Of a stretch of 64,000 bases of DNA, positions 5,011 to 63,262 are shown piece after piece. The first letter of the stretch is position 1. The number at the start of each line of letters is the position of its first letter. This DNA is from Podarcis liolepis (taxonomy: Eukaryota), in the NCBI GenBank assembly GCA_965112155.1, contig OZ218107.1; one strand, 5' to 3'. Both the position numbers and the translations under genes were made by a program. The notes beneath the pieces were generated by a model. It did no database searches and was not told the DNA's origin. It was given only the letters and a program-made list of their open reading frames with translations.

Positions 5011-5259
5011 CAGGGGTCAGCAAACATTTTCAGAAGGGGGCAGTCCACTGTCCCTCAGACCTTGGAGGGGGGCCGGACTATATTTTTTGGGGGGGGAATG
5101 AACGAATTCCTATGCTCCACAAATAACCCAGAGATGCATTTTAAATAAAAGCATACATTCTACTCATGTAAAAACACTGATTCCCAGACCATCCGTGGGC
5201 TGGATTTAGAAGGCGATTGGGCTGGATCTGGCCCCCGGGCCTTAGTTTGCCTACCCATG
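5011..5259 (+). mobile_element. hAT-type MITE, family A
   Basis: Ends CAGGGGT.../...ACCCATG; 8-bp TSD atctaatg/ctctaatg; three more copies in the window. Confidence 0.85.
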
Positions 5260-14874: not shown

Positions 14875-15750
14875 GCCTAGATGTTGGTTAATAACAAAAC
14901 AAAACAAAATTGATTATTGCTTTTCCCAGAGCAACCAAAACATAGATCTTTACATTGTGTGTTTTCTTTATGACTGAAATATAACAAAATCCTAAATACA
15001 TTCCTCTATATTCCTCTCATGCATGAGTCAACAGCTGCAGACCTCTGAAGCAAACCTGGACCCCTAAGGATGCTGCTACCTGCCCCTTCACAAGTTACCG
15101 ATCTAAAGGTGAAAGATAAGCTGGTCTCTGTGGCAACAGAACTTGGTGGCATAGCATACTAGATGGTCTTCCCACCTCTTCTCCCACCTCAAAGTGTCCC
15201 CTGGACAGACGAATTCTTTACCAGAGCTCTCTTATGACCAATATAATTGTTTTTAAAGGATTATGGGCCTTTAAAAACACTTCAAACATTTCCCAACTAT
15301 TGTCAAAACCCATTTAAACTCTCAGGAGTATACAACCACTATGCAGGTTTATTGCTAAATTTCTACAGTGAAATTAAATAGGAAGTGATCAAAGTCTAAC
15401 TATGCTCGACATTTTAGGCATCAGGAATGAGTAGTTTCACCTGTAATGAACTGCTTCACCTATATTTAGTAGTTATGACTTTCATACTATTTTGGTAATA
15501 CACTTAGGATGTAAGACTATGGTAATTACATTTCCCTCAAGTTAACCTCTCTGGAAAAATATATATAATTATATACATTTTATTTAAAGTAGTATGGAAG
15601 CACAAAATTAACCACAGGGACAGATTTTGAAATGTTATTAACAGCATCTCCTTCTTTGAAGAGATAGGAACATCTTTTGGGGAAACTATCATTGAAAGAG
15701 GTTTTACAATACTTTTTTAAAAAGGAAGGAAGTGTAAGGTGCAACCTCAC

Positions 15751-16571
15751 CTGCTTGGTATTGTCTTTAAGCAGCCTTTGATAGATTTGTCTGTAACACC
15801 TTCCTGGACTTTATCTGTAACTTCTCCCTGGGCTTTATTCTCTTCCGCTGGTGGCGCAGTTTCCTTTTTGTGGCAGATCAAAATATAATTGCGATTGTCA
15901 TTGTTTGCCCAAAATATTCCCACCGATGTCTCATAACGGATGCAAAATTCAACCTTAGCGTCCTCTCTCTGATAAGGAGGAACCAATGAAATCTTGAACA
16001 AGAACTGGTCAGTCTCGCCATCACAAGAATTAGGCACATAATCTCCTAAGATGTCATAATAAGTCTGCCAGTTGTCCAAAGACATTCGGACATAGACCAG
16101 CTTTTCGAAGGATACATTCAGAACACGGATGGTGCCCTTCATACATGTTATCCCTGGCAGGAACTCGACAGACTCTAGCCATACTTTCTGTGCACGCACT
16201 TTTTGCAAAAGCTCTTCTTGTGTGGCAGGCAGTATAAACAGTGGAGATAAATAAAATTCCTCCACAGGCACAACTTCATCTTCTAAGTCGTCATTTGGTA
16301 ATGTAATTGGAACATCCCAGGTATCAAACTCCTTAACGGATACAAGGTCAAAACCAAATGCATCAGCAAATGAAACTTTTCTTGCAATGGTGGATGGGGT
16401 TTCTGCTTCCATTTCTTCAGAAGAATCTGAATTCCGCCTCCGGGGGCTGGGGGAGAAGCGGTGCTGCAGTGTAGCTTTAACATCTTCATCTTCTGAGAGA
16501 GAATCGCTTAAAGTGGGAACTTCTAATAAGTTCTCCCTACTAATCTGACCAGGTTCTTCAAAAGACTCCAT
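15751..16571 (-). CDS. PPP1R3A: Protein phosphatase 1 regulatory subunit 3A (GM/RGL, muscle glycogen-targeting subunit), coding exon 1
   Basis: Translation from ATG 16571 (MESFEEPGQISRENLLEVPTLSDSLSEDED) matches the GM N-terminus. It has the PP1-binding RVxF motif (RKVSFADAFG), a PKA-type site (RRRNS) and a CBM21 domain (GTIRVLNVSFEKLVYVR...FWANNDNRNY). The frame ends at a canonical donor CAG|GTGAGG (minus strand, exon end 15751; 821 nt, phase 2). Downstream exons were not recognised in the window. Confidence 0.95.
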
Positions 16572-23301: not shown

Positions 23302-23948
23302 ATGATTGGCAACTTTGAGAGCATCATAGACATTCCAAACACCTGTGAAAACTACCAAGAAAAGGTAGACGCATCCAATGGAATTTCTCCCAGACTAGCA
23401 ATTGGTGTGCTATATGCCAGAAGAAGTCTATCAAAACGCATAACCGAAGATGCTACGGAGAAGCCGCCACTATCTTACATCACTTTGATTGCTAATGCGA
23501 TTCTTTCCTCGTCTATAAGGAAGCTCACTTTAGCTGCTATTTACAAATATATTGAAGAAAATATTCCTTTTTACAGGAAGAGAGGCCAAAGCTGGAAAAA
23601 CAGTGTCAGGCATAATCTTTCACTAAATGATTGCTTTATCAAAGTGGGAAGGTGTGAAGACGGCAAAGGAAATTACTGGAGCATCCAGCAAATGTAAACG
23701 ATTTTGTGCATGGTGACTTTCGGCAACACCGCAGACTGCACCAACAAGGACGCCAAAGGGAATATGACCCACATCACAGCACATCTTACCGTGCACCGTG
23801 GGGAAACTGCTCTTGTTTGATACTCGTTTTGCCTTCTCAAATGAATCCCTACTTTTGGGATCCCTTCTGGGAAACGCTGATTGTGAAAATGCTTTCCAAG
23901 GGCTGGAGGTTAACTTTGGTTTTTCCCATGGAAAGTTTTAATCTGTGA
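23302..23948 (+). pseudogene. Intronless FoxQ2-type forkhead transcription factor gene, frameshifted near 23683-23688 (pseudogene, null allele or assembly error)
   Basis: ORF 23302-23697 encodes [18 protein letters not shown]...[32 protein letters not shown] shifted frame continues at once with [18 protein letters not shown], the wing-2 signature typical of FoxQ2, to a stop at 23948. There is TATAAAA at 23133-23139 and AATAAA at 24195-24200. Confidence 0.8.
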
Positions 23949-26900
23949 TACAATTCAGTGAAGCAAAATGGAACTCCGTGGATGTGTTTTATGGGTTACG
24001 TTCTTCAACTGTACAGCAGAACATTTCCCTGAATGTTCAACAGATGTTCCCTGCTTCCTTATGCATATGCCCTTTCAATCTACAGAGTAGAGATGCATTC
24101 AGCTATATCTTTCAGAACCTGAGAGGATGCTACTTGCACTTGGACTGGACCAATTCAGCTGGACATTTCATCCCTGATGACCAATTCATACTTTAATAAA
24201 TACAACATGATAAAAGTATTTGCTGTAAAAGACAGTGGTGTAATACTGGGACTTTGTTGGAAATGAGTCTCATTTATTTTAATGGAAATTGGTTTCGCAT
24301 TAAGAATGCTTAGGGTCAGACTTGACTGAGATTGTACTGCAAATCAGTGAACCGATGTCTTTTATTGTCACAGCTGTTGCTTGGGGGAGTCTCTCGCTTT
24401 TGGTTTTTACACTGTCAATATTATATTCCACAGTTGCAAATGATGCTTCAGAGAATACAGTCAACATTGCTGCATGGAAATCACAAACCATTTCATCTAA
24501 GTGATTGTTCAGGAATTGTTTAGAAAACCTCACAGCATTTTCTTTAACAATAATGATTGCAAATAGCTACTCTTCAGAAAGCTTTAAGCTGTTACTGCTG
24601 TACATTCTTCTTTATTCAATAAGATAACAAGAGTTGCTGACTTTTACAAAACTGCAGTTACTGCTGATATAATCTGAAACGATGATATGACTGTCAACAC
24701 ATTGTACAGTCCTATTTCAGTGTGAAGTTCATTGCATTGTTTACATTTATTAACAATGAACTTATCATTGTAATGGGGACAGTCTGATCTCATATCTTCT
24801 GCTTCAACAGGAATAAACCAGAAGCATTGGCTATTATACCATACAGTTAATGTATTCTTTAGGCATACTCATGTGGAACTATGGACTGGGAAGCCAATGA
24901 CATAAATGTTTATTCATAATGTGGGGTCTTTATGCCTTTTCTAGAAGTCATTCTTGCTAGTATTATTGGAATACTGCATCCAGTTATAGGTGCCACAATT
25001 TAGGAAGGATGTTGAGAAGCTGGAACGTGTGCAGAGAGAACTCAGCTAATAAATTTAGATTTAACTTGATGAAAGATTAGAAATGTTAGTGGGAGATTAG
25101 CGATGGAAGAGAACATGCTTATACAGATAACTACTGGTACCTGAGATGAAACCATTTAGAGACAATTGCCATAATTGAAAATACAAATTATACTAGTAAA
25201 GCACAATGTCTGAGAGACCTCTTTTCAGATATCACATTGCCATCTATTTCCCTCCTGAAAACTTAGAACAGCATTCAAAATGTGTACACAAACTTTCATT
25301 CCAACATCTCAGCGTTGAATGCAAATGTTGTATTGCATTGTCTTTTGCATTTTCCCTCACATTAAAATGAGGTGGGGGTTTCGTGGATACCTGAAACTTC
25401 AGGTATGGAATTCTGTCTTGAACATATGTGCAAAGTTTAGTTCCAATGTCTTGGTGTTTACTTGAGTTATCACATGACAAACAAACAGTATGCCAAATGG
25501 ACCCATTGAACCAAAGACCTTATTCTTCATGGTCAATAAAAAGTTTTTGTTTTAAAAAGGCACAAATATGTTTTAATTCAAGTATGTGTCTCGAATAAAC
25601 AAGGCAGGAGGCTATCCTTTTCTCTGCGCAGCTACTTTTGGAGTGTACATATTAAATGCCAAGTGACTGACATAAATAGCTTAGGCTGAAGTCATGTGGA
25701 CTCCTATAAATAAGCCCCACTGGCTCAGTTTTTCTTATACCGGCAGACAGTCCCCAACACACTGCTTGAAGTAAAGGCTGATTTGTATATTCAGGGGAAA
25801 GCACATTATTCCCAGCTTCTTGTGACTGTGGGAGAATCATTTGACTGAATGTTCAGCTGCGTCAGTTCAAAAAACCCACCTGTGACAAAATGGGCCTCTT
25901 AGGATGAATGGTTTCTGCTGTAGCCCTACCAGAGTATTCTGTGTTCAGGGCATTTGCCACAGAGGAGATTATTTGAATATGCAACCGGTCACTGCATTTC
26001 TAAGTCATACCATTCCAAGAGGGCTTTATAAAATGATCTTCCTGAATGTGTTGATCAGATCTCAACCCCATTGGTTTTATATTTCATATTTCAGGACTGA
26101 AAACAAGCGAAAGCAGAAGTAAAATAACTTGGTTGAAATGTTATTTTATCCTGCATTTAGCAAATAATTAATTCTGTGACAGTCCTGGCCTAATCTTAAA
26201 TTGAAGGTTTATCTCCCCCCCCCCCCCCGCAAAAAAATGCTATTTGTTTTATTTAGTGCGTGCTGATTATTGTGCATTTTCTATCTATATGAACTAGCTG
26301 TTCTTGCCTTAGGCTGTGTGCCAATGGTACCACCAGGCACCACAAACCAGCCCCTTCTACAAAAGAACAGTGTTGCACCTCTAGCAGTCACTACAATGTC
26401 TTCCCTACCCATTTATTTACTTTTCACAGGCTGCTACTGCTGTGGAGCAAAGACGCTTCAAGCAGTTGGGCCTACCAGGTTCATTTCCAGGAGTGCTGTG
26501 CCTCTGGGCTCATGTGAAAAGAAAAACAATCAGTTGATGGATGGAGAGCAGAAAACAGCACAAATCAACCGAGTTGGAATTTGTCTGCTTCTGTGCATCC
26601 TGTGATGGGGGGTGGGGGTGGACCTGCCCATTTCAGTTGTACCTGTTTCTAACTTTCCCCATCAAATTCAGTTTTCTGCATTTCTGCATCCATTTGTGAT
26701 TTCTTTTAAATAATAATTAAAAATCCTCATGCAAATTCATCAGCATTTTAGTGCAAATTTCTCCTAGTGAACACAAAACTTTGTATGCAGCTTGAAGTAA
26801 TGCACACATTTTTGCAAGCAATTTATCCTAACTTAATGATTTTTGTGTGTTCTTTCCACCAATATATGCATTTTTATGTGCACTTTAATATACACGCTTT

Positions 26901-32119: not shown

Positions 32120-32277
32120 NNNNNNNNNNNNNNNNNNNNNNNNNNNNNNNNNNNNNNNNNNNNNNNNNNNNNNNNNNNNNNNNNNNNNNNNNNNNNNNNN
32201 NNNNNNNNNNNNNNNNNNNNNNNNNNNNNNNNNNNNNNNNNNNNNNNNNNNNNNNNNNNNNNNNNNNNNNNNNNNNN
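32120..32277. other. Assembly gap (158 N)
   Basis: Run of N bases. Confidence 1.
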
Positions 32278-32411: not shown

Positions 32412-32734
32412 CAGGGGTCAGCAAACTTTTTCAGCAGGGGGCCGGTCCACAGTCCCTCAGACCTTGTGGGGGGCTGGACTATATTTTTTGGGGGGGAAGG
32501 AATAAACCAATTCCTATGCCCCATAAATAACCCAGAGATGCATTTTAAATAAAAGCACACATTCTACTCATGTAAAAAGACCAGGCAGGCCCCACAAATA
32601 ACCCAGAAATGCATTTTAAATAAAAGCATACATTCTACTCATGTAAAAACACTGATTTCCAGACCATCCGCAGGCCGGATTTAGAAGGCGATTGGGCTGG
32701 ATCTGGCCCCTGGGCCTTAGTTTGCCTACCCATG
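32412..32734 (+). mobile_element. hAT-type MITE, family A (with internal ~60-bp duplication)
   Basis: Perfect TSD ccttagga (32404-32411 / 32735-32742); the segment gcccca(c/t)aaataaccc...catgtaaaa is present twice. Confidence 0.9.
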
Positions 32735-34118
32735 CCTTAGGATACCCCTGTTTTCATCAGGGAAATGTTGGAGGGTCTGGAATAGGAGAAATGTTGGAGG
32801 TAAGGAAAGCTACTGATGGAGGGAAACATTCACTGGTGCCAAAGGCAATGTCCACCTTACAGTGAATAGCAGCTGGGGAGGGGGGTTTTCACCAGGACTG
32901 CAGTAAGATGCATCCCTTGGTTCCTGCAATACTGATAGTGAGGTTTCAGTGGCTATTTATGGTTATAGATGGAGACATAGCACTTGAAGTGATTGTGCCT
33001 AATTTGGCCCCCAGAGGCTTCCTTCCGCCTGCAAAGGTGTTTTGCTTTGTAACTTCAATGGAGGGGGAAGTTCTGTGCAATCATCCCTTTGCCTATATTA
33101 ATGAATAAAACCATTAATATACTGCTTAATGCCAAAGCTGGCTTCTAAGTGGTTACAAGGTATAAAATAAAAAAACACACCTGTTACACAGACCTTAAAA
33201 TGTAAGCATCCATAATTAAACAACCCCATTAAAACATTAAAATAGAAGCATCCACAATTAAAAGGCAGGATAAAGCAATCCCATTAAATCAATACAGCAA
33301 TTAAAACAGGAGATTCGGGTTGAGAGAGATGGGCTCTGTATAAAAAGGAACAAGCCAAATTAGACACGCATGGATAGGATTGCTCATGGTTGTTGCCTTT
33401 TCTTAAAAAAAAATAAAAATCAAAGCAGTCATGAGTTGAATGATTTGGATTGAGGCTGCAGCATTGAGGGATGGAGAATGAACCATTTCTGCTCTGCTGT
33501 CCTCCTCCCCATGCTGGTATTTGTCACATTCAGCTCCTCTCCAAACCTCAGCAATCAGAGGGAGCAATCAGTAGAGTCCTGTATCTCCCCTTGTGGCTGT
33601 TTTGCACACTCTGTTCCTCCCTTTTTGTCACCCAGTGATGAATGCACATGTGTGAAGACACCTTAAATGGTACAAAAGATATGAAGGTTCCCCATCGTCA
33701 GTGCAAAGCACAGCAAGGAAAGATTGCAGAAGTCCAACGAACAGGGAATTCAATGCACTGAAAGCACAAACTCTCTGGCCTAATGGAACCCTCTGGGGCG
33801 CTTCATGTATCGCAGGTTTCACGCATGCACAGAAAACCAGGGTCATTCATGCAGCAGGCACAGCTTTGCAAGCACACAAATTAAACGTCGACAAGCTGGC
33901 ATTGGACACAGTTTCCTTGCCACCATGGCATGGACTCATGATGGTAAGCATGTAAAGTCTGCAAAGCAACCCTAATTATGTGGTATTCGGGGGGCGTATA
34001 TCTGAACTGTGCACATATGGGAAAACAGTGTGTTGTCATTATTAGTTTCAAAGTGTTTAATTTAAATATTGAGAATGACCTAAAACAGATGCCGTTAAAC
34101 CAGTTCAATAACCTACTA

Positions 34119-35987: not shown

Positions 35988-36017
<30 letters not shown>

Positions 36018-36022
<5 letters not shown>

Positions 36023-38046
36023 GGTTTTGGTGTCCTCGGGTGTCTTCCCGTGTAAAAGTTGGGGTGTCTAGGCGACGTTTCGACGAGGTCTCACTCGTCA
36101 TCTTCAGGCTGGTGCTTTCGGCTTCTTGTTACTGGAACAGAGCGGGATCTCAGTGTTTGAGTTCCTATAAATACTGTAGAGGGGTGTGGTGTATTGCCTC
36201 AAAAGTTCTGGGCAGAGGGGAAGTTCCCAGGCTAGTGTTCTTTTCTTCTTTTGTTCCTTAATTACTTGAGGGATATCTTGAGTGATTTCTTGAGTGATAT
36301 TCTGAGTACCACTTAGGTGGGTCATTAGGTGTGGATTAGTTGCTAAAGCCTTCGTGTCTTGACCTCTTGAATTTGTGAAGAGTTTTTCTGGGAAGATGGC
36401 TGTACTGCACTTAGTTGTGCTTTGGCTTGGCTTCGTGTATAGGGGCGAGCTGTGGTTTTGTGCCCTGTGCCAGCCAGATCTGTGTAGGGATTGCAGGGGG
36501 GTGCAGCATCCGGAGGTGCCACTATGGTTTGGTTACTGGATGGTGTCTGTAATTTATCTGTGGAGAGGGTCTGGGTTTGGGTCTGGTGTGGTTGATTGGT
36601 GGTGGCGTTCTGTGTGCCTCTGGATCTGGTGTCGGTTTTTGTGGGGAGGGCTAATTTCCAGATGTCTGGCAGGCGGGACGTGTCGTCACGCTTGTTCATG
36701 TTGTGAGGGTGTTTCTCTATCTCGATGGCTTCCATGATTATTCTCTTGTGGTGATGTTCCATGTTAAAGAGCAATTTGGAATCTGCAAAATTAATTTCGT
36801 GTCCTGTTTCTTTCATGTGTTGGAAAAGAGAAGAAGATTTTTCTTCTTTTTTGACGGCATTCTTGTGTTCTGCGATACGTGCATTTATTCGTCTGTTTGT
36901 TTGTCCAATGTACGTGGCTGGGCAGACTTTGCAGGGTATTTCATAGACCCCTTGGTTTTCCAACTGGATTTTATCTTTGGGGTTTCTGAGGATATTGGCT
37001 ATTTTTTGGTTGGTGCAAAAGGCTGTTTTGATATTGTGTTTATGGAGGATTTTGCTAATTTTATCTGTAGTGCCCTTGATATAAGGAAGGAGGGCCATGC
37101 CATTGTTTTCTTCCGTGTCTTGGTTTTTGGGGGGTGTTTCTTTTTGGATTAGCTTCTTAACCCTGTTTTGCTGGTATCCATTGGCGATTAACACATTTGA
37201 GAGATTCTGTAACTCAGTTGTCAAGTGGTCTTTGTCAGCCAGGCGTTTGGTTCTGGAGATGAGGGTCTTGGCTACGGAGTTTATTTGTGCAGGGTGGTGG
37301 TGTGATTGAGCATGTAAGTAGCGGTTGGTGTGTGTTTTTTTCCGGTAGATAGTGTGTCCTAGGGAGCCATCAGGATTTTTTGTAGATTAGGACGTCAAGG
37401 AAGGGAAGCTGGTTGTTGGCTTCTATTTCCATAGTGAATTGTATTTTGGGGTGTAGGCTGTTGAGATGTGTGAGGAAGCTATCTAGTTTTTCTTTCCCGT
37501 GTGGCCAAATTACAAAGGTGTCATCAACATATCTGAGCCAAAGTTTGGGTTTGTGTTCTGACTTGTCTAAAGCATTGGTTTCAAAGTGTTCCATGTACAG
37601 ATTTGCGATGACCGGTGAGAGGGGTGATCCCATAGGTGCTCCTTCTATCTGTTTGTATCTTTGTCCATTGTGGATGAAGTACGTGTTGGTTAGGCAGTGG
37701 TTGGTCAGGTCCAGGATGTATTCGGGGGGATTGTATTTGTTTTGAATGGCTGTCAAGGCTTCATTAATGGGCACTTGTGTGAAGAGAGATACAACATCGA
37801 AGCTCACAAGTAGGTCATCGGGATGTAGGTTTTGCTTCTTTATTGTTTCTATGAACTGGAAGGAGTTTGTAACGTGTGAAGAGATGGATTCTGCATAGGG
37901 CTGAAGTTGCTTAGCGAGAAATTTAGCGAGATTTTGTAGAGGTGAGCCTATGGAGCTGACTATTGGTCTGAGTGGTGTTCCTTCTTTGTGTATCTTGGGG
38001 AGGCCGTAGAGTTTGGGGCATCTGGATGATTTTTCTCTGGGGATGA
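36018..38046 (-). mobile_element. Penelope-like retroelement (RT + GIY-YIG), 5'-truncated, left arm; one 1-bp frameshift
   Basis: ORF 37370-38083 (LYGLPKIHK..PLRPIVS, SFDVVSLFT, GAPMGSPLSP, RYVDD) and ORF 36343-37224 (GVYEIPC..C..TYIGQT) are split by an extra base at 37375. The 3' end abuts (TA)n at 35991-36019. Confidence 0.95.
36067..36114 (-). ncRNA. Minimal type I hammerhead ribozyme (mirror copy in the left arm)
   Basis: Exact reverse complement of 39875-39922 (ggcgacgtttcgacgaggtctcactcgtcatcttcagg on the + strand). Confidence 0.8.
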
Positions 38047-38053
38047 AATCTCG

Positions 38054-39996
38054 CAAAATCTCGCTAAATTTCTCGCTAAGCAACTTCAGCCCTATGCAGA
38101 ATCCATCTCTTCACACGTTACAAACTCCTTCCAGTTCATAGAAACAATAAAGAAGCAAAACCTACATCCCGATGACCTACTTGTGAGCTTCGATGTTGTA
38201 TCTCTCTTCACACAAGTGCCCATTAATGAAGCCTTGACAGCCATTCAAAACAAATACAATCCCCCCGAATACATCCTGGACCTGACCAACCACTGCCTAA
38301 CCAACACGTACTTCATCCACAATGGACAAAGATACAAACAGATAGAAGGAGCACCTATGGGATCACCCCTCTCACCGGTCATCGCAAATCTGTACATGGA
38401 ACACTTTGAAACCAATGCTTTAGACAAGTCAGAACACAAACCCAAACTTTGGCTCAGATATGTTGATGACACCTTTGTAATTTGGCCACACGGGAAAGAA
38501 AAACTAGATAGCTTCCTCACACATCTCAACAGCCTACACCCCAAAATACAATTCACTATGGAAATAGAAGCCAACAACCAGCTTCCCTTCCTTGACGTCC
38601 TAATCTACAAAAAACCTGATGGCTCCCTAGGACACACTATCTACCGGAAAAAAACACACACCAACCGCTACTTACATGCTCAATCACACCACCACCCTGC
38701 ACAAATAAACTCCGTAGCCAAGACCCTCATCTCCAGAACCAAACGCCTGGCTGACAAAGACCACTTGACAACTGAGTTACAGAATCTCTCAAATGTGTTA
38801 ATCGCCAATGGATACCAGCAAAACAGGGTTAAGAAGCTAATCCAAAAAGAAACACCCCCCAAAAACCAAGACACGGAAGAAAACAATGGCATGGCCCTCC
38901 TTCCTTATATCAAGGGCACTACAGATAAAATTAGCAAAATCCTCCATAAACACAATATCAAAACAGCCTTTTGCACCAACCAAAAAATAGCCAATATCCT
39001 CAGAAACCCCAAAGATAAAATCCAGTTGGAAAACCAAGGGGTCTATGAAATACCCTGCAAAGTCTGCCCAGCCACGTACATTGGACAAACAAACAGACGA
39101 ATAAATGCACGTATCGCAGAACACAAGAATGCCGTCAAAAAAGAAGAAAAATCTTCTTCTCTTTTCCAACACATGAAAGAAACAGGACACGAAATTAATT
39201 TTGCAGATTCCAAATTGCTCTTTAACATGGAACATCACCACAAGAGAATAATCATGGAAGCCATCGAGATAGAGAAACACCCTCACAACATGAACAAGCG
39301 TGACGACACGTCCCGCCTGCCAGACATCTGGAAATTAGCCCTCCCCACAAAAACCGACACCAGATCCAGAGGCACACAGAACGCCACCACCAATCAACCA
39401 CACCAGACCCAAACCCAGACCCTCTCCACAGATAAATTACAGACACCATCCAGTAACCAAACCATAGTGGCACCTCCGGATGCTGCACCCCCCTGCAATC
39501 CCTACACAGATCTGGCTGGCACAGGGCACAAAACCACAGCTCGCCCCTATACACGAAGCCAAGCCAAAGCACAACTAAGTGCAGTACAGCCATCTTCCCA
39601 GAAAAACTCTTCACAAATTCAAGAGGTCAAGACACGAAGGCTTTAGCAACTAATCCACACCTAATGACCCACCTAAGTGGTACTCAGAATATCACTCAAG
39701 AAATCACTCAAGATATCCCTCAAGTAATTAAGGAACAAAAGAAGAAAAGAACACTAGCCTGGGAACTTCCCCTCTGCCCAGAACTTTTGAGGCAATACAC
39801 CACACCCCTCTACAGTATTTATAGGAACTCAAACACTGAGATCCCGCTCTGTTCCAGTAACAAGAAGCCGAAAGCACCAGCCTGAAGATGACGAGTGAGA
39901 CCTCGTCGAAACGTCGCCTAGACACCCCAACTTTTACACGGGAAGACACCCGAGGACACCAAAACCTGCATTCCTGTACCCGTGAAAATCTACGAA

Positions 39997-40001
<5 letters not shown>
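38054..40001 (+). mobile_element. Penelope-like retroelement (RT + GIY-YIG), 5'-truncated, right arm; open frame to 39646
   Basis: Uninterrupted frame from 38054 (QNLAKFLAKQL...) to the stop at 39646, with RT motifs (YVDD) and a GIY-YIG endonuclease. The 3' UTR/pLTR region follows and ends in (AT)n at 40002-40032. Confidence 0.95.
39875..39922 (+). ncRNA. Minimal type I hammerhead ribozyme in the Penelope 3' region
   Basis: CUGAAGA core (39882-39888), extra U, stem II GACGAG/CUCGUC with a 6-nt loop, GAAA (39908-39911), palindromic short stem III ACGU and a GUC triplet. Predicted cleavage is after C39915. Minimal hammerheads are an established feature of Penelope-like elements. Confidence 0.8.
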
Positions 40002-40034
<33 letters not shown>

Positions 40035-48899: not shown

Positions 48900-51800
48900 A
48901 GTTTCAGGAGAAGGCGCGCGCGCGCGCACACACACACACACACAAGCGCACCTCGTCTCGCCAGGTGGGTAGTATCCCCCTTGAGTACAACAAGGCGATT
49001 ATCTGCGGGAACTGGAGAGATCTGAAAGCTCTCCTTTGAAACAAAAGGCAGTCTAAAAATTCAGAGTTAAAACTAAGGCGAAACGAGGAACTCCAAGAGG
49101 CGCGAGATCTGGGACAGGTTTTGAAGCAAGGGGGACGATTCAGTTTGAGCTCCTCTGTCTTTTCAATGGGGGGCGGGCGAGGGTTGGACTCGGCGGCTGC
49201 ATGTCAGAAATGCACACTCGGATCAAGCAGCCAAACGAACTTGGCCGCTGTCTGGGCTCCAGGCTTGGGCAGCTCCTGCGCCTTTTTGTCTGGTCCGCGG
49301 GCTTAACTCGTCACACGCACAAAAAGGATGGCGAAAGGAAACGGGTGACTCTCGCCCCGCCGCCGAAACTGTGCTCTGGACATGCCTGCCGGGAGATCGG
49401 GACCTTTGGGGATAACATCCCCACGCTGCCCCGGAGCCTTCTCGCCTGGCCCGGGCGCCGCGCTTGGGAAGGAGAGAGAAAACCACTACCTTGCGCCCCA
49501 AGGCTGCCGGCTGCGCGTTGTGAGCGAGCGAGCTGCCTGCTTTCCCGCTCGGTGAATTATTTCGTTTGAAGGTTCACGGGAGTTGTCTGGAGGCACTTAA
49601 GATCTGCCCAGAACGGGAGTATTCGTTCTCCGTTCATCTCGCCCCCAGATTCCTCTTGATGTCTGGCGCCCACACTGCTTAGAGAAACTTTTAATTATTA
49701 TTGCGGTTTCCTCAACTTCGAGGAACCCCCGAGTCGCAGGACTCACGCCCTGATCCTAAACAAATGAGCTTGGCAGTTAAATAAACTAAACTATAAGTGC
49801 CTGAATGGTTTCACGTAATCCCTACCATGTATGCTTAGCGACGCAGCCTAACGCTCCACGGCACATTTACTCGGAAACAAGCCACGCTGCAATCGCGGCC
49901 GAATAAATGCATTTAGGGACGAGGCGTGGGACTACTTAGAACTCCCTTCTTTGAAGTAACAAATAATCAAAGAGGAGGGAAAACAAAACAGAGAGAGAGC
50001 AAGTGTCCCATTGAAACCAGTGCGCCTTTCCTCCCAAGTAAACGTGCCTCTTAGGCTCCCGGTGCTAACGAGCCATCAAGGTTTATGAGCAACTCGAACA
50101 ATTAAAGAAGGCGGAGGTAAGACAAAAAGAGTTGCGAGAGGCAAATGAAGATGTTTTACGACCACCCATCAACAAGCACTCCGCGCCTTGCAGCAGTCAA
50201 TAGCCTGGAGTGCGCGTGTCCTTGGGCTGAACTTTCACCTCTCGAACCCGGTGGAGCCCTATTGGCTGAGAGTTAGCAATCTGGGTAGGAGAGAGCCCTC
50301 GGCTCTCCGCAAAACCTGCGTCCTGCGCACCTCCTGCTTTCTCTTCCCCCGCCTTCCCTTCCCTCTCAGACCTGAGCAAGGGAGGGGAAGGGTAGTCTCA
50401 TCTGCTGCCCAGGCGCCTCCAAACACACTCCGAAAAGTATGCCAGAGGAATGGCGGGAATAGCTGCTTTGCAGAACGCACATTTTTTTTAAACCCCACCA
50501 ATAATTGTCCAAACACGAGACGCACACGGTTCAAATCTTTGCACCTTTTTGCACTTCTCCGGCAGTGGAGCGATTGCAACCCCACAAAAAGGAAAGTTCA
50601 GCAAAGTGTGGCCGAGTCCTTTCCGACTTTTGTTTTTTTCACCCTCTCCTGTTTCTTGGGGGAAATCTTGAACTGGTGGGGGGGAAACAACCAGGGCAAA
50701 TTTGCTTTCATCTTATGAGTAAAGATGTGGGCAACGTCCAAATCCCAAGCGAAAGGAAAAATTTGCATAGTAATTCCTTTCTGTCCTTCCCGATACTCTT
50801 CCCCACCACTATCAACCGCGCGCGCGCGCTTTCCAACCGGCGGTGGGCAACCTATAATAACTGCGTCGCGAGAAACTTTCCCATTTGTGTAACACGCTAA
50901 GCTGAAAACAAACACTTCGCGTTATTTTTGAGCGACGGTCGTGTTCCATTCAGATCTTCGGTTAATTTAAAAGAACTTTTTGAATTCTCTTTAAAAGCGC
51001 TCAAAAAGTCCCACCAACAAATTAAATCCAAGGCAAGTCCGCGAGATTTTTATGTAGGATTTCCTTTTTTACTTCTTAATTAATCACCAACCAAGCACTA
51101 GCCTTGCAAAATGATGCAGAAAGATGAAAGCAAGTTGAACGATTAGAAACTTGCGATGCGGGTATTTCATTTTGTTTTACTGTTTTTAGAAACTTTCTCA
51201 CGGCCAAAAAAAGCCGGAATACTTGAATTTATTTATCTCGATTGCGCTTCCATATGCTCACGCGGTTTGAAAAATCTGATGTGCGCATCTATTTAAAATT
51301 AAAGTACTGCACTGTTGATCAGGCTTCCCTTCCCCTGCTTTTGGGGTGAGGGGCAACAACTGTTTCAGCTGGAAACGCGATCCGTGGCTGAAAGGTGTTG
51401 GGAAGGATATGTGGCGGTTGCCTGGCCGTTTTCATGGCTCTGCAAGGCGTGTGTGTAAAGCGCAGCGGGAAACCCCTTGTCAGACCCGAGCAGAAGTTGC
51501 AATGCACTTTCGGAGTTGTTCGCGTTGCGTGCAGTAAAGCTAGCTAGAGGTGCCACCACCAGACTCTTTAGGCTTTTGTTGACGTTATTAGCCATTGCAA
51601 CGCAGGAGATGGATGGGCTTTTAATTGCATCTCGTCCAAAAAGTTTCGTCGTCTTTTCTTGAGGAAGGGCGGGCGGGCGCTCGGTGGGCCTTAGTCGTCA
51701 GCCTGGAGGCCAGCAACTATGGCGGAAGGGAAGGGGGTTGTCGGTTCTCTAGTGTGCGAAACCGGAGCTCAGTCAAGGAAGCCAGTTTCGCTCTAGCAGC

Positions 51801-54200
51801 GAGTTCGAACCGGACAGGCGGCCTCACGCGCAAGGCTTTCATTTGCCACAGGCGCGCTCAGGCTCGGAAAGCGCGGGGTTCCAATTAAAACCAAAGTGCC
51901 ACCGAGCATGTGCAGTGTGCCTCCCTCACACCCTCATTCTCGGGGATACTTACTCGACAACAGACAGCGCTTTCTGACATGGAGTTACTAAATGTCCTTT
52001 ACGGGAAGCCCACCCCACCCCACTGAACGAATACTGTAACTTCTGAGGAGACACGCACAGGGGGACGTTGTAAGTTTGCGGTTCTGTGTGCGTTAGCCTA
52101 AGCGTAAGCCCTGCTGTGGGACCTACAAACGGGAGGGGGGAAAGGGGGGCATCGGAGCGTAGCTGTCAGCCAGGCGTCAGTTCCATTTACCCCCGTCTTT
52201 CTCATTCTTTCCCGCCTTTAGAGGAGGAGGAGAAGGAGGAGGACGCAGCAGGCAACCTGCTGGCGCGGGATTTACCACGCTTTTCTTTGCAAGGAGAGCT
52301 GGGCTGGGTGTTTAGTGTAGCACGTGTGGGGCCACCCGCTGCCTTTCGCCTTCCTCGCTGTGGGGTGTGCTTGAAGGTCAGAGTTGAGCTCCTGAGTTTT
52401 ATTGGCATACTAAACCTCCGGAGAGGGAGAGAGAGGCAGGGCGAGAGAGGAGGAGAGGGAGTCTGAAACGCGCGCGCTTTGACCAAACTCTGAAAAGCGC
52501 GGCCCAAGTCTGAGGAGATTTGCACACATACCCCTCCTCCTCCCCCTCCCCCCGTGCCAACGCTTCAAAGCAGCCTTTCTAAAGGGCTCTTGTAGTCCTT
52601 CCTGTCCTCCTTCTGAGAAGTCCCCCCCCCACTTCGCATAAGCCCCCCCCCCGCTCCTTTGGAGTACTAGCTGAAAAGCTGCTGTGGCGCAACCAATTTG
52701 ACACGACGCTTTTGTTTTCCCCTCTCCCGTTTGCAAGCCTGGTTGTGGCGCGAGGGTGGAGGTGGGGGGAGAGAGAAAGAGAGCGAGAGAGGAGAGCAAA
52801 CAACTTCTCGGGTGGTTTGTTTACATAGCAGGTGGACCTGACGTCAAGGAGGACGCTTCACTGCGAATCCGAATAATATCCTGCTCCGCTAGCAGGACTC
52901 CTTGCTCGGGAGAAGGCTGGCAAGCGGGGAGGCTGCAGCATCGGGGGCGAGGGAACCTTGCTAGATTGACCCCGCCACACTTTTATTTGGGGGGGGGGGA
53001 GTGCTGGTGGTGGCGGGAAGAAACTCGCATCCCCTCCCTGGTTTAGAGGAACACAACTTTAGGAACACAACCTAAAGAGTCGTTGTCACCCCAAAAAGGG
53101 GGGGGGGAACGTGCGTGCACACGCATTTTTCCCCTCCAAAAAAAAAAATCTGAATCTTTCCACAAACACACACACGAGAGGCAGCTGCACCCCCTCCATC
53201 CAGAGAGAGGGAGCCAGCCCCACACCCAGGGGGAGGGAGAACGCGAGAAGCAGCGCGAGCCTCTGAGAGAACGCGAGACCCCGCGCAGCTGCTGCTCCTG
53301 CCTCAGCTTTGGCGGCGGCGGCGGCTGCTGCTGTTCGGTCGGCGGCTCCTTTGCTTTGCTTGCTGCCGCCCAGGCCCCGGGAGCCACAGAGCCAGCGCCG
53401 CCTGCGGAGGAATATCCAGCCCTTTCAGAGACGCTGCTGCTTCTCTCTCTCTCTCTTGTTGTTGTTCCGTTCGGATTCCCCCTCCCACCCGGCGGCTCCT
53501 CTGGCGCGTCCTGGCAGCGGCGGCGGCGGCGGCGGCGGCGGCAGCAGCTCCTCCTGCAAAACACTTTTCCCTCTCCCTCGGTGTGTTTGTATTTGCGTGT
53601 GCGTGCGCGCGGCGAGCGAGTGCACCGCCTGCCTCTCTCTCCCTCTCTCTCTCCCCCGCCGTGCCATCTCCTCGGGACTCTGCTCAGTCAGTGTGCGCTC
53701 CTGGTAAGTTTTTTAAAATATATATATAAATACTATTCCCCTCCCTTCTCTCTCTCTCTCTCTTTCACCCCACCCCACCCCACCCCGTCCCTTCAGTCAG
53801 GGGTTTGACTAGTTACTTTCCTCCTGCCCTCGCTCTCGGCTCCCCTCCCCCTCCCGCTTTCTCTCCAGCTGCTCCTGGCTGCAAGAAAAGTTTGCCTGCA
53901 AGCCGCCGGGAACATGGCGTGTCCATGTGTCCAGGGTGACATGTGTCAAGGTCTGTTCTTAGCAGGTGGCGAGCGCTGTGGCCCACTCCTGCCCCTCTTT
54001 TCTTTCTTTCGCCGAAGCAAACGCCCACACGGAGACTTAATTTTGCATGCATCTTTGTTTTTGCAGGAGGGTTTCTTGGTTATAAATTAATCGAGGCAGG
54101 GTGTTAACCCCCCCCTCTCATTTTAACGCGCCCGATCTTCGGCTCGGGTAGCAAACACCCCCCCCCCCAAAAAAGAGCCTCGTGGCACCTCAAAGACTTA
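48900..54200 (+). promoter_or_regulatory. Large CpG island / promoter, probably the distal promoter of FOXP2
   Basis: Abrupt rise in CpG density against CpG-depleted flanks, with no recognisable transposons inside and GC, CGG and GA tracts. The gene identity is inferred only from the conserved divergent PPP1R3A-FOXP2 arrangement in vertebrates. Confidence 0.8.
53200..53703 (+). other. Putative non-coding first exon (likely FOXP2 upstream 5' UTR exon); start approximate
   Basis: Strong donor CTG|GTAAGT at 53703/53704, at the 3' end of the CpG island. It is preceded by GC-rich UTR-like sequence with (GGC)n runs and followed by AT-rich intron-like DNA. Confidence 0.55.
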
Positions 54201-55707
54201 GCAGACTTAATGTGCTTTGAGTTGTAGTGCATTTGATGCAAGATCTTGAGGTGCCACTAGACTTGTGTGGGTGGGTGTTTGCACCTTTGTGCGCGCTTGA
54301 AGTACAGGTGATCTTTGCAAACTCTCGAACTTGGCCTGCGCGGACTTTTAACAGTTGCTCACTGCAAGTAAAAGGTGCATTAAAAATCACCTAATTGCCT
54401 GCTGTTTTCATTAGATATTGAGAAAACGTGGCGTGGTATTTCAGAGAGTGTGGTGTTGTTTTCTCCCAGCCTGCTCCTCTTGTGTCACTTTCGGGGAGGT
54501 GGAAGCCTAGAGTCATGGGGCGGGGAGCACGTGTGCCCTTGGGGAGAGCAGCCAGACACCCCACTTCCCTCCATGCCAGACAGACCCTAATGCGTGGAGG
54601 GGGAAAGGGAAATTGGCAGCAAGACGAGGTGGAAAGACGGGCCTAGCTGTGACACTTGGGGGGCTGTAGCAGTATTCATTGACTTCTCTTCCTTCCATCA
54701 GTTAGTTGCACGTGCATGGTGTTTCGCCTGTACCCTCTCTGGCCAGGACGAGTTACTGCATTCCTTTCATTTATTTATATATTTAGCTAGTTTGCTGCCG
54801 TTTGCTTTGGTCTCCTAACACCACCTTTTTCGTAGTGGTTTTTTTAAAAAATTATTTATATATATTGTGCTTGCTGGAGAGAGTGTGTTCACCTTGAACA
54901 ACAGCAACAGAAAACGTTAGCCTACAACGCTAGATTAATAAATAATAATGGCAGACCTGTATGGAGCTCCGGAGGCATTCTTGGCTGCCTTTGCTGTGGG
55001 AGAGTCTTCTCCTGAATTTCACTCTTGAAATTCAAAACGCAAGAAAGTTGTGAAAGTTTAATTTTAAGAGCTTTCGAGATCAAGTAGGTAAATGGCTCTA
55101 AGGCATGTTGAGCTTTGTTTGTGGAGTTGTGAGTGTGAGGACAGGGAAGGTGAGGAATGAAACAAAACGCTAGCTGCCCTTTTTTTTTGCTCGAGTTTCT
55201 GAGTGATTACCCAAACATAAAAAGGTCTTAGTGTAAGGATGAATAAAAAATAGGGCAGAGTTCCCGGTGAAACCAAGGTAGCTCTTTGATGTAGATTCTG
55301 TGTCTAAGTAACTTTGCACTAAAACGTTTTTCCAGGCATTTTAATAACTGGACTTGAATACTGTACAACAGCTTTTGCTCCAAATGAAGTTGTGGTCTGC
55401 TTTCATTGTCAGAGTGAATTTTCTGCATCTGGGTACCTGTTCTACTGAAAACAGTTGATTGTGGGATCAAGTTGAAAAGAACCCATACATTTATAACAGA
55501 TGGCAACAAATGATTAGGAGTGAAGGTAACTGGGCTTTAAGGAAAAGTTACTAAAGTGACTATTCTGCACTCGCAGTGCATTCACAGTGCAGAAGAGAGA
55601 GTTCTTTTTTGAAGTAGAAAATGAAATGTGTTACACAACTGAGTGTAAGAGATTTCAGTGCTCCAGTGATCTTCCTCTTATATAGATAGTTCAATTCCAA
55701 TCATTTT

Positions 55708-55712
<5 letters not shown>

Positions 55713-55757
<45 letters not shown>
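55713..55757. repeat. (AT)n microsatellite
   Basis: Direct reading. Confidence 0.95.
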
Positions 55758-63100: not shown

Positions 63101-63262
63101 GCCTGGATAGCTCAGTTGGTTAGAGCATGGTGCTGATAACACAAAGGTTGCAGGTTCGATCCCTATATGGGACAGCTGCATATTCCTGTATTGCAGGGGT
63201 TTGGACTAGATGATTCTCAGGGTCTCTTCCAGTGCTTCAGTTCTATGATTCTGTTATTCTGT
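63101..63262 (+). mobile_element. SINE with tRNA-Ile-like head and CR1-derived tail
   Basis: tagctcagttggttagagcatggtgctgataac...ggttcgatccc is followed by the same CR1 3' end seen at 4530-4596. Confidence 0.8.

Follow-up and report, generated by a model that had tools for sequence, protein, structure and literature searches.

A head-to-head pair of Penelope/Poseidon-clade copies in a (TA)n microsatellite of Podarcis liolepis, probably formed by one insertion primed from both target strands

Among the inverted arrangements of Penelope elements (PLEs), head-to-head is the most frequent (PMC3846280), and large inverted terminal repeats of variable size are a frequent form in Drosophila virilis (PMC2377424). 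PMC8557442 counts the origin of tandem and inverted PLE structures among the questions still open. For PAc, the Poseidon element of Anolis carolinensis, PMC11167929 describes a protein that cleaves AT-rich DNA and extends both strands on a sense RNA template. Its reverse transcription starts at two internal sites, one of them at +111-118, and the PLE tail is the stretch between two such start sites; the steps that follow first-strand synthesis are, according to the same source, unvalidated. Seen beside these systems, the architecture of the locus described here is already known, as published PLE forms include insertions in which an inverted copy is 5'-truncated and one end has a tail of 30-40 bp. 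The novelty that the original prediction attached to the layout was therefore overstated, since PMC8557442 and PMC3846280 describe it as frequent.

The locus lies in a 64,000-nucleotide stretch of Podarcis liolepis DNA (GCA_965112155.1, contig OZ218107.1), referred to here as the window. Comparison of the window with itself by BLAST yields a single long inverted match (E=0.0), in which the right arm aligns to the left arm, read from 37936 to 36018, at 99.948% identity over 1919 columns, with 0 mismatches and 1 gap.

36018-37936, minus strand: left arm, a 5'-truncated Poseidon-clade element without a tail, ending at +82/+84 of the downstream ORF start (self-BLAST, sequence comparison)
38054-39971, plus strand: right arm, mirror of the left (self-BLAST)
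37375, plus strand: single extra base, the only difference between the arms, which frameshifts the left ORF (arm comparison)

These arm coordinates agree exactly with those first proposed. A self dot-plot had been suggested as a check, and the self-BLAST answers it: the palindrome is real and far beyond chance. The claim that one extra base at 37375 is the only difference holds both in the alignment and under single-base removal, as it is the sole base whose deletion equalises the two arms. The 117-nt spacer and the 5' truncation points about 110 nt apart are likewise as originally described. The outer ends required a partial correction. Both are element 3' termini, as claimed, but they are unequal, the right arm being 30 nt longer (39972-40001), so that the feature starts at 36018 as given and ends at 40001 rather than 39971. 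A 591-nt piece from the palindrome centre folds at z=-44. The extra base adjoins a T6 run and disrupts the left-arm frame, and P0001, a Podarcis muralis gene model, reads through this region like the open right arm.

Judged by domains, motifs and homologs, the arms are 5'-truncated copies of a Penelope/Poseidon-clade retrotransposon.

38054-39646, plus strand: 5'-truncated ORF with the RT core (GAPMGS at 38348, YVDD at 38459), thumb/linker and GIY-YIG endonuclease with CxxC (39038); 530 codons without a stop (Pfam, motifs)

This single ORF comprises RT and then a C-terminal GIY-YIG endonuclease, its N-terminus being absent through truncation, and Pfam places RVT_1 (E=5.8e-14) and GIY-YIG (E=6.6e-4, below the curated cut-off) in one frame. 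Within the GIY-YIG core lies a CCHH motif with CxxC, GVYEIPCKVCPATYIG followed by His residues. The RT-EN linker contains no CX2-5CxxC zinc finger, with one Cys among 132 thumb/linker residues; this finger is present in Neptune and Nematis (PMC8557442). By the criteria given in PMC8557442, a CxxC in the GIY-YIG core together with the missing linker finger assigns the element to the Penelope/Poseidon clade. The best homolog is P0001, at 97% protein identity, and the proposed Penelope identity is supported. Identity falls to 73-80% for snake and agamid copies and to 47% for the Anolis element. When the window protein is placed in a tree with 24 species-named hits (unnamed hits excluded), it clusters with Podarcis, Phrynocephalus, Ahaetulla and Vipera copies at 100/99, with Anolis outside. 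Taken alone, these relationships point to a lacertid lizard as the probable host. Membership in the Poseidon_Ac (PAc) family itself was rejected on account of the 47% identity and the separate clade. The same tree places the squamate family nearer to beetle copies from Anoplophora and Pyrocoelia (98/94, with the fork open) than to the Anolis Poseidon, whose own partner is a copy from a weevil (99/99). The topology suggests separate insect-squamate transfers.

An autonomous partial-tandem PLE unit was also rejected, as both arms begin inside RT, with no upstream pLTR and no full-length ORF. Having neither the pLTR upstream nor the ORF N-terminus, the insertion is a non-autonomous dead-end copy. 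Outside the palindrome, tblastn with 120 homologs found no other PLE copy or fragment within the window. Four short matches of 72-82% at 33800-34080, considered as an old fragment, lack support in that search and probably arose by chance.

The outer ends of the insertion differ from each other by the tail and share the target.

35991-36019, no strand: left part of the (TA)n target, its last AT common to the element end (sequence inspection)
40002-40032, no strand: right part of the target, (AT)n (sequence inspection)
39972-40001, plus strand: 30-nt tail confined to the right end (+85 to +114 from the ATG), encoding SCTRENLRKQ and matching a conserved PLE N-terminal motif (profile test)

Both ends adjoin (TA)n, 29 nt on the left and 31 nt on the right, which amounts to an AT-rich or microsatellite target. 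Within such a repeat, a target-site duplication would be definable only by comparison with the empty allele. Elsewhere in the window, an unoccupied 46-nt (AT)n run at 55712-55757 is a potential target for the same family. The element 3' end includes the first ORF codons, and relative to the ATG it stops at +82/84 on the left and +114 on the right. The tail continues the ATG frame and has no further occurrence in the window at 10 nt or more. A profile was built from the N-termini of 21 homologs, those among 120 in which the N-terminal motif is retained; in it, RENLRKQ is equalled by 284 of 90,162 window 7-mers and RENLRKQI by 34 of 85,845 8-mers. The conserved Ile stands at +115 here and at +118 in Anolis P0051. 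Direct BLAST of the N-terminal peptide against the 120 homologs returned nothing significant (best E=2.9), and we identify 39972-40001 as a PLE tail because the profile scores and the position of the conserved Ile match.

The adjoining 3' region carries two mirrored pairs of motifs.

36074-36107, minus strand: minimal hammerhead ribozyme motif, left copy (custom descriptor scan; no Rfam match)
39882-39915, plus strand: minimal hammerhead motif with palindromic helix III, the ORF ATG (39888) at the start of stem II (custom descriptor scan)
36166-36173, plus strand: TATA-consensus match pointing inward, in antisense orientation to the element; motif only, weak, with 67 such matches elsewhere in the window
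39816-39823, minus strand: mirror copy of the inward TATA match; motif only

The hammerhead descriptor matches only at 39882 (+) and 36107 (-), with 0 matches in 100 shuffled windows, and an Rfam scan found no hammerhead in either arm. Minimal hammerheads with a palindromic helix III are of the type described in PMC4209133, and each arm would thus carry a putative hammerhead in its pLTR. The RNA fold of the 3' end is no better than that of shuffles (z=-1.27). In the centroid of this non-significant fold, 39937-39942 pairs with the tail at 39979-39984, and the AC-rich loop between them contains the left-arm start site; such a tail/upstream stem is only suggestive.

Between the arms, the spacer consists of two parts.

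37937-38046, minus strand: element sequence of the left arm only (IPREKSS...GSPL), the last base a probable 1-nt microhomology (P0001 reads ...LRIIPREK)
38046-38054, plus strand: templated junction insert, a direct 9-nt copy of 38056-38064 (rough chance estimate 8e-4)

Thus, 109-110 nt of element sequence continue the left arm and are followed by the copied insert, with a junction microhomology of 1 nt only and no target DNA between the arms. The loop is exclusive to the left arm and the tail to the right arm, so neither arm is a plain copy of the other; pure cDNA fold-back is thereby excluded, and a fold-back read chimera becomes unlikely. The stand-alone cDNA fold-back of the original prediction fails on this point, since the 30-nt tail has no template in the left arm, nor the spacer in the right arm. 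An imperfect fold-back pairing at the junction, plausible at first, proved unstable when tested, and stable pairing was found at neither of the inferred priming sites. The flanks are unrelated to each other (best hit E=0.09), and the mirror does not run into them.

Similar arrangements appear among the homologs. Residues 1-37 of P0001 correspond at 100% to the element read backwards, ahead of the sense part. The join lies at a likely predicted splice site and therefore shows only that an antisense copy is upstream of a sense copy, without giving a junction position. P0022 begins with a weak 13-residue antisense start (E=0.002). These two lizard gene models suggest that further head-to-head loci exist in Podarcis muralis and perhaps also in Phrynocephalus. 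P0001 is the only longer antisense-plus-sense protein found (1 of 70 candidates), and 6 of 150 antisense-frame PLE ORFs also hold a sense-frame segment, five head-to-head and one tail-to-tail. The five head-to-head proxy ORFs, from distant families and possibly chimeric, have truncation offsets of roughly 170-880 nt.

We propose, with a probability of about 0.8, that a single insertion gave rise to the locus, with reverse transcription primed by both target strands at two tail-defining start sites. The head-to-head layout, the single recent event and the opposite-strand priming that had been predicted are all retained here. That this core was completed by a second arm made through cDNA fold-back and captured by a short tail cDNA has, in our judgement, an even chance. 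Starting from the anatomy, the tail identity, the arm-unique sequence, the copied insert and the target, all directly observed, we infer the dual nicking, the order of events and the fold-back as follows. A squamate Poseidon-clade element would have retrotransposed once, recently, into a (TA)n microsatellite, where its GIY-YIG endonuclease would nick both strands of the TA repeat, by analogy with the Anolis relative in vitro. Reverse transcription would then be primed by each 3'-OH at an internal RNA site, which, counted from the ORF start, is about +82 for the top strand and about +114 for the bottom strand; the interval between the two priming sites would constitute the 30-nt tail. The top-strand cDNA, of about 2.03 kb, would halt in the RT region, fold back about 110 nt and self-prime twice, leaving the 9-nt copied insert. 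The folded cDNA would copy itself into a sense strand, which would finally be captured by the short tail-bearing cDNA on the opposite target end. The narrowest version, in which a single RNA meets two adjacent primers, the upstream one making the long self-copying cDNA and the downstream one making the tail and capturing the copy, we regard as rather doubtful.

Several observations bear on fold-back and capture. Despite variation within the family (protein identity to P0001 is 97%), the arms are identical at 1918/1918 aligned bases, which argues for one common template. The tail-less arm owns the loop, as one-RNA fold-back predicts (1/1, chance 0.5), and palindromes are frequent at PLE inverted junctions according to PMC3846280, which fits. 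Against fold-back stand the missing stable pairing at the inferred priming sites, the microhomology of a single nucleotide, and the proxy offsets, which show no tight fold-back pattern in 5 ORFs. Fold-back would moreover have copied a first-strand error into the right arm, so that the left-only extra base would have to be later, or an assembly error. The inferred cDNA lengths of 2027 and 1948 nt are explained equally well by synchronous dual synthesis, and, as near-perfect palindromes draw notice, the close truncation points of this one locus are open to selection bias.

These same lengths lend themselves to a different origin of the second arm, namely two long cDNAs of about 2 kb each, one begun at each start site and templated by two RNAs of a single source or by two units of a tandem RNA, with the 3' ends of the two cDNAs end-joined through a templated insert. 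We consider this possible but less probable than fold-back and capture. Joining of the polymerase-theta type typically leaves direct copies of the partner end. An error in one cDNA would account for the left-only extra base, and the wide offsets of the five proxy junctions would be expected; PAc, too, extends both strands, uses the same start sites and is a predicted dimer (PMC11167929). What such a route requires is two templates identical at all 1918 bases in a variable family, and it predicts neither the palindromic junctions described in PMC3846280 nor any link between tail and loop. Thus, of the two target-primed reverse transcriptions joined at their 5' ends in the original prediction, opposite-strand priming is supported, while the second long cDNA ranks below fold-back capture.

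The other explanations are much weaker. Changes after insertion, either an inverted duplication via template switching at the TA run or two insertions homogenised by gene conversion, draw on (TA)n being its own reverse complement and on the known gene conversion between palindrome arms, owing to which arm identity alone does not date the event. We hold them improbable, as each arm has sequence absent from the other, the ends differ by exactly the 30 nt of the family tail, no target DNA separates the arms, and the flanks share nothing. The chance of an assembly or library artefact (a fold-back read or amplification chimera) appears smaller still: PLE tandem and inverted structures do trouble assemblies (PMC8557442), the sole indel is beside a T6 run and polishing could equalise the arms, but the mirror ends at biologically defined element ends instead of continuing into the flanks, the left arm misses 30 nt of right-end element sequence, and the junction insert is an ordered copy. 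Equally slight is the prospect of self-priming on an antisense RNA template, or of a re-mobilised palindromic transcript from another locus. An antisense template is proposed in PMC3846280, which argues for bidirectional pLTR promoters, and each 3' region here has an antisense-facing TATA match; that match is weak among the 67 others in the window, and PAc uses sense RNA, with internal start sites that match both ends here (PMC11167929).

The insertion is young, to judge from the unbroken right-arm frame and a CpG o/e of 0.52 compared to 0.20 and 0.23 in the flanks; we argue from these features because conversion or polishing may inflate arm identity. Read-through RNA would fold into a near-perfect hairpin, so that the predicted hairpin RNA, a putative endo-siRNA source, is possible. 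The predicted proneness to cruciforms was overstated. In yeast, a spacer of 9 bp lowers breaks by about 80% and abolishes fork pausing (PMC8053094); with a spacer of 117 bp, cruciform extrusion is doubtful, and hairpins in single-stranded DNA are possible.

In the surrounding window, no Pfam exon lies near the locus among the 69 long frames scanned (of 96 listed), a result that applies to long coding exons. Only two Pfam hits in these frames are credible. One, a CBM_21 match at 15750-16571 (-), marks the first coding exon of a gene resembling PPP1R3A, which is also its best PDB hit (E=7e-66). The other, at 23302-24190 (+), belongs to a forkhead gene of one exon that is interrupted by an in-frame stop and by two frameshifts, one near 23685 and one near 23885. 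Its segments are 63-75% identical to a Rhineura floridana protein that is itself intact, and the gene is also intact in Anolis, turtles and birds; the copy here is probably a lineage-specific pseudogene. The idea that it is FOXQ2 finds no support in synteny, as FOXQ2 sits between PIAS4 and ZBTB7A (PMC8494292). The insertion is about 19 kb upstream of the PPP1R3A-like exon, 12 kb past the forkhead frame and 10-13 kb before a CpG-rich region at about 50000-55000 (o/e 0.56-0.92), which also contains a GGC repeat and, near 53705 (+), an apparent splice donor. By PPP1R3A-FOXP2 synteny, we take this region to be possibly a far-upstream FOXP2 promoter. A 158-N gap at 32120-32277, which places assembly gaps near the insertion, adjoins a partly duplicated copy (32415-32735) of a 250-bp interspersed repeat also present at 5014, 22666 and 40864. 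A weak tRNA match (33 bits) at 63108-63166 (+) is probably the head of a tRNA-derived SINE.

As one non-autonomous copy of a published architecture, the locus is an unusually clean example: the opposite ends of a single insertion correspond to the two start sites, and the ownership of tail and loop would separate fold-back from dual synthesis. If fold-back and capture is correct, the locus would be a frozen intermediate of Penelope inverted-repeat formation, and a rule would follow, whereby the 5'-shorter arm carries the tail and the arm without a tail owns the loop. Should the inward TATA boxes work as well, a 1.9-kb hairpin RNA would be produced by such insertions themselves, which would then serve as self-made silencing loci of the family. 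A literature search that covered few subscription papers found no fold-back-and-capture or dual-priming model for PLE inverted repeats. In the same largely non-subscription literature, which did not extend to the 2005-2006 PLE reviews, no published description of this lacertid element family was found.

Compared with the EN+ PLE inverted-repeat insertions described in PMC8557442, PMC3846280 and PMC2377424, the locus shares the 5'-truncated inverted copy adjacent at the 5' end, the 30-40-bp tail at one end only, the microsatellite or AT-rich target, and the first ORF codons held in the pLTR. In contrast to them, it has no full-length ORF and no upstream pLTR, its arms are almost equal (1.9 kb) so that nearly the whole insertion is palindromic, and its junction is a 110-nt loop plus a copied insert instead of a short perfect palindrome. 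With PAc (PMC11167929), it has in common an RT start near +111-118, a tail between two start sites, an AT-rich target, RT with a C-terminal GIY-YIG, and an ATG at the start of hammerhead stem II. The two differ in their proteins, which are 47% identical and fall in separate clades, and in their start sites: each start here is beside an AT able to pair with the TA-repeat primer (observed on the left, inferred on the right), while PMC11167929 reports no homology to the cleaved DNA. L1 twin-priming and fold-back inversions (PMC10191854; bioRxiv 10.1101/2024.12.14.628481) resemble the locus in using the second target strand as primer, in the inverted segment at the 5' junction and in self-annealing on 1-2-nt homology. 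The fold-backs described for L1 duplicate target DNA, unlike the locus here. In L1, the inverted parts do not overlap and a 3' terminus is found at one end, whereas here the arms overlap fully, over 1918 nt, and both ends are element 3' termini, which upholds the distinction from L1 twin priming drawn at the outset.
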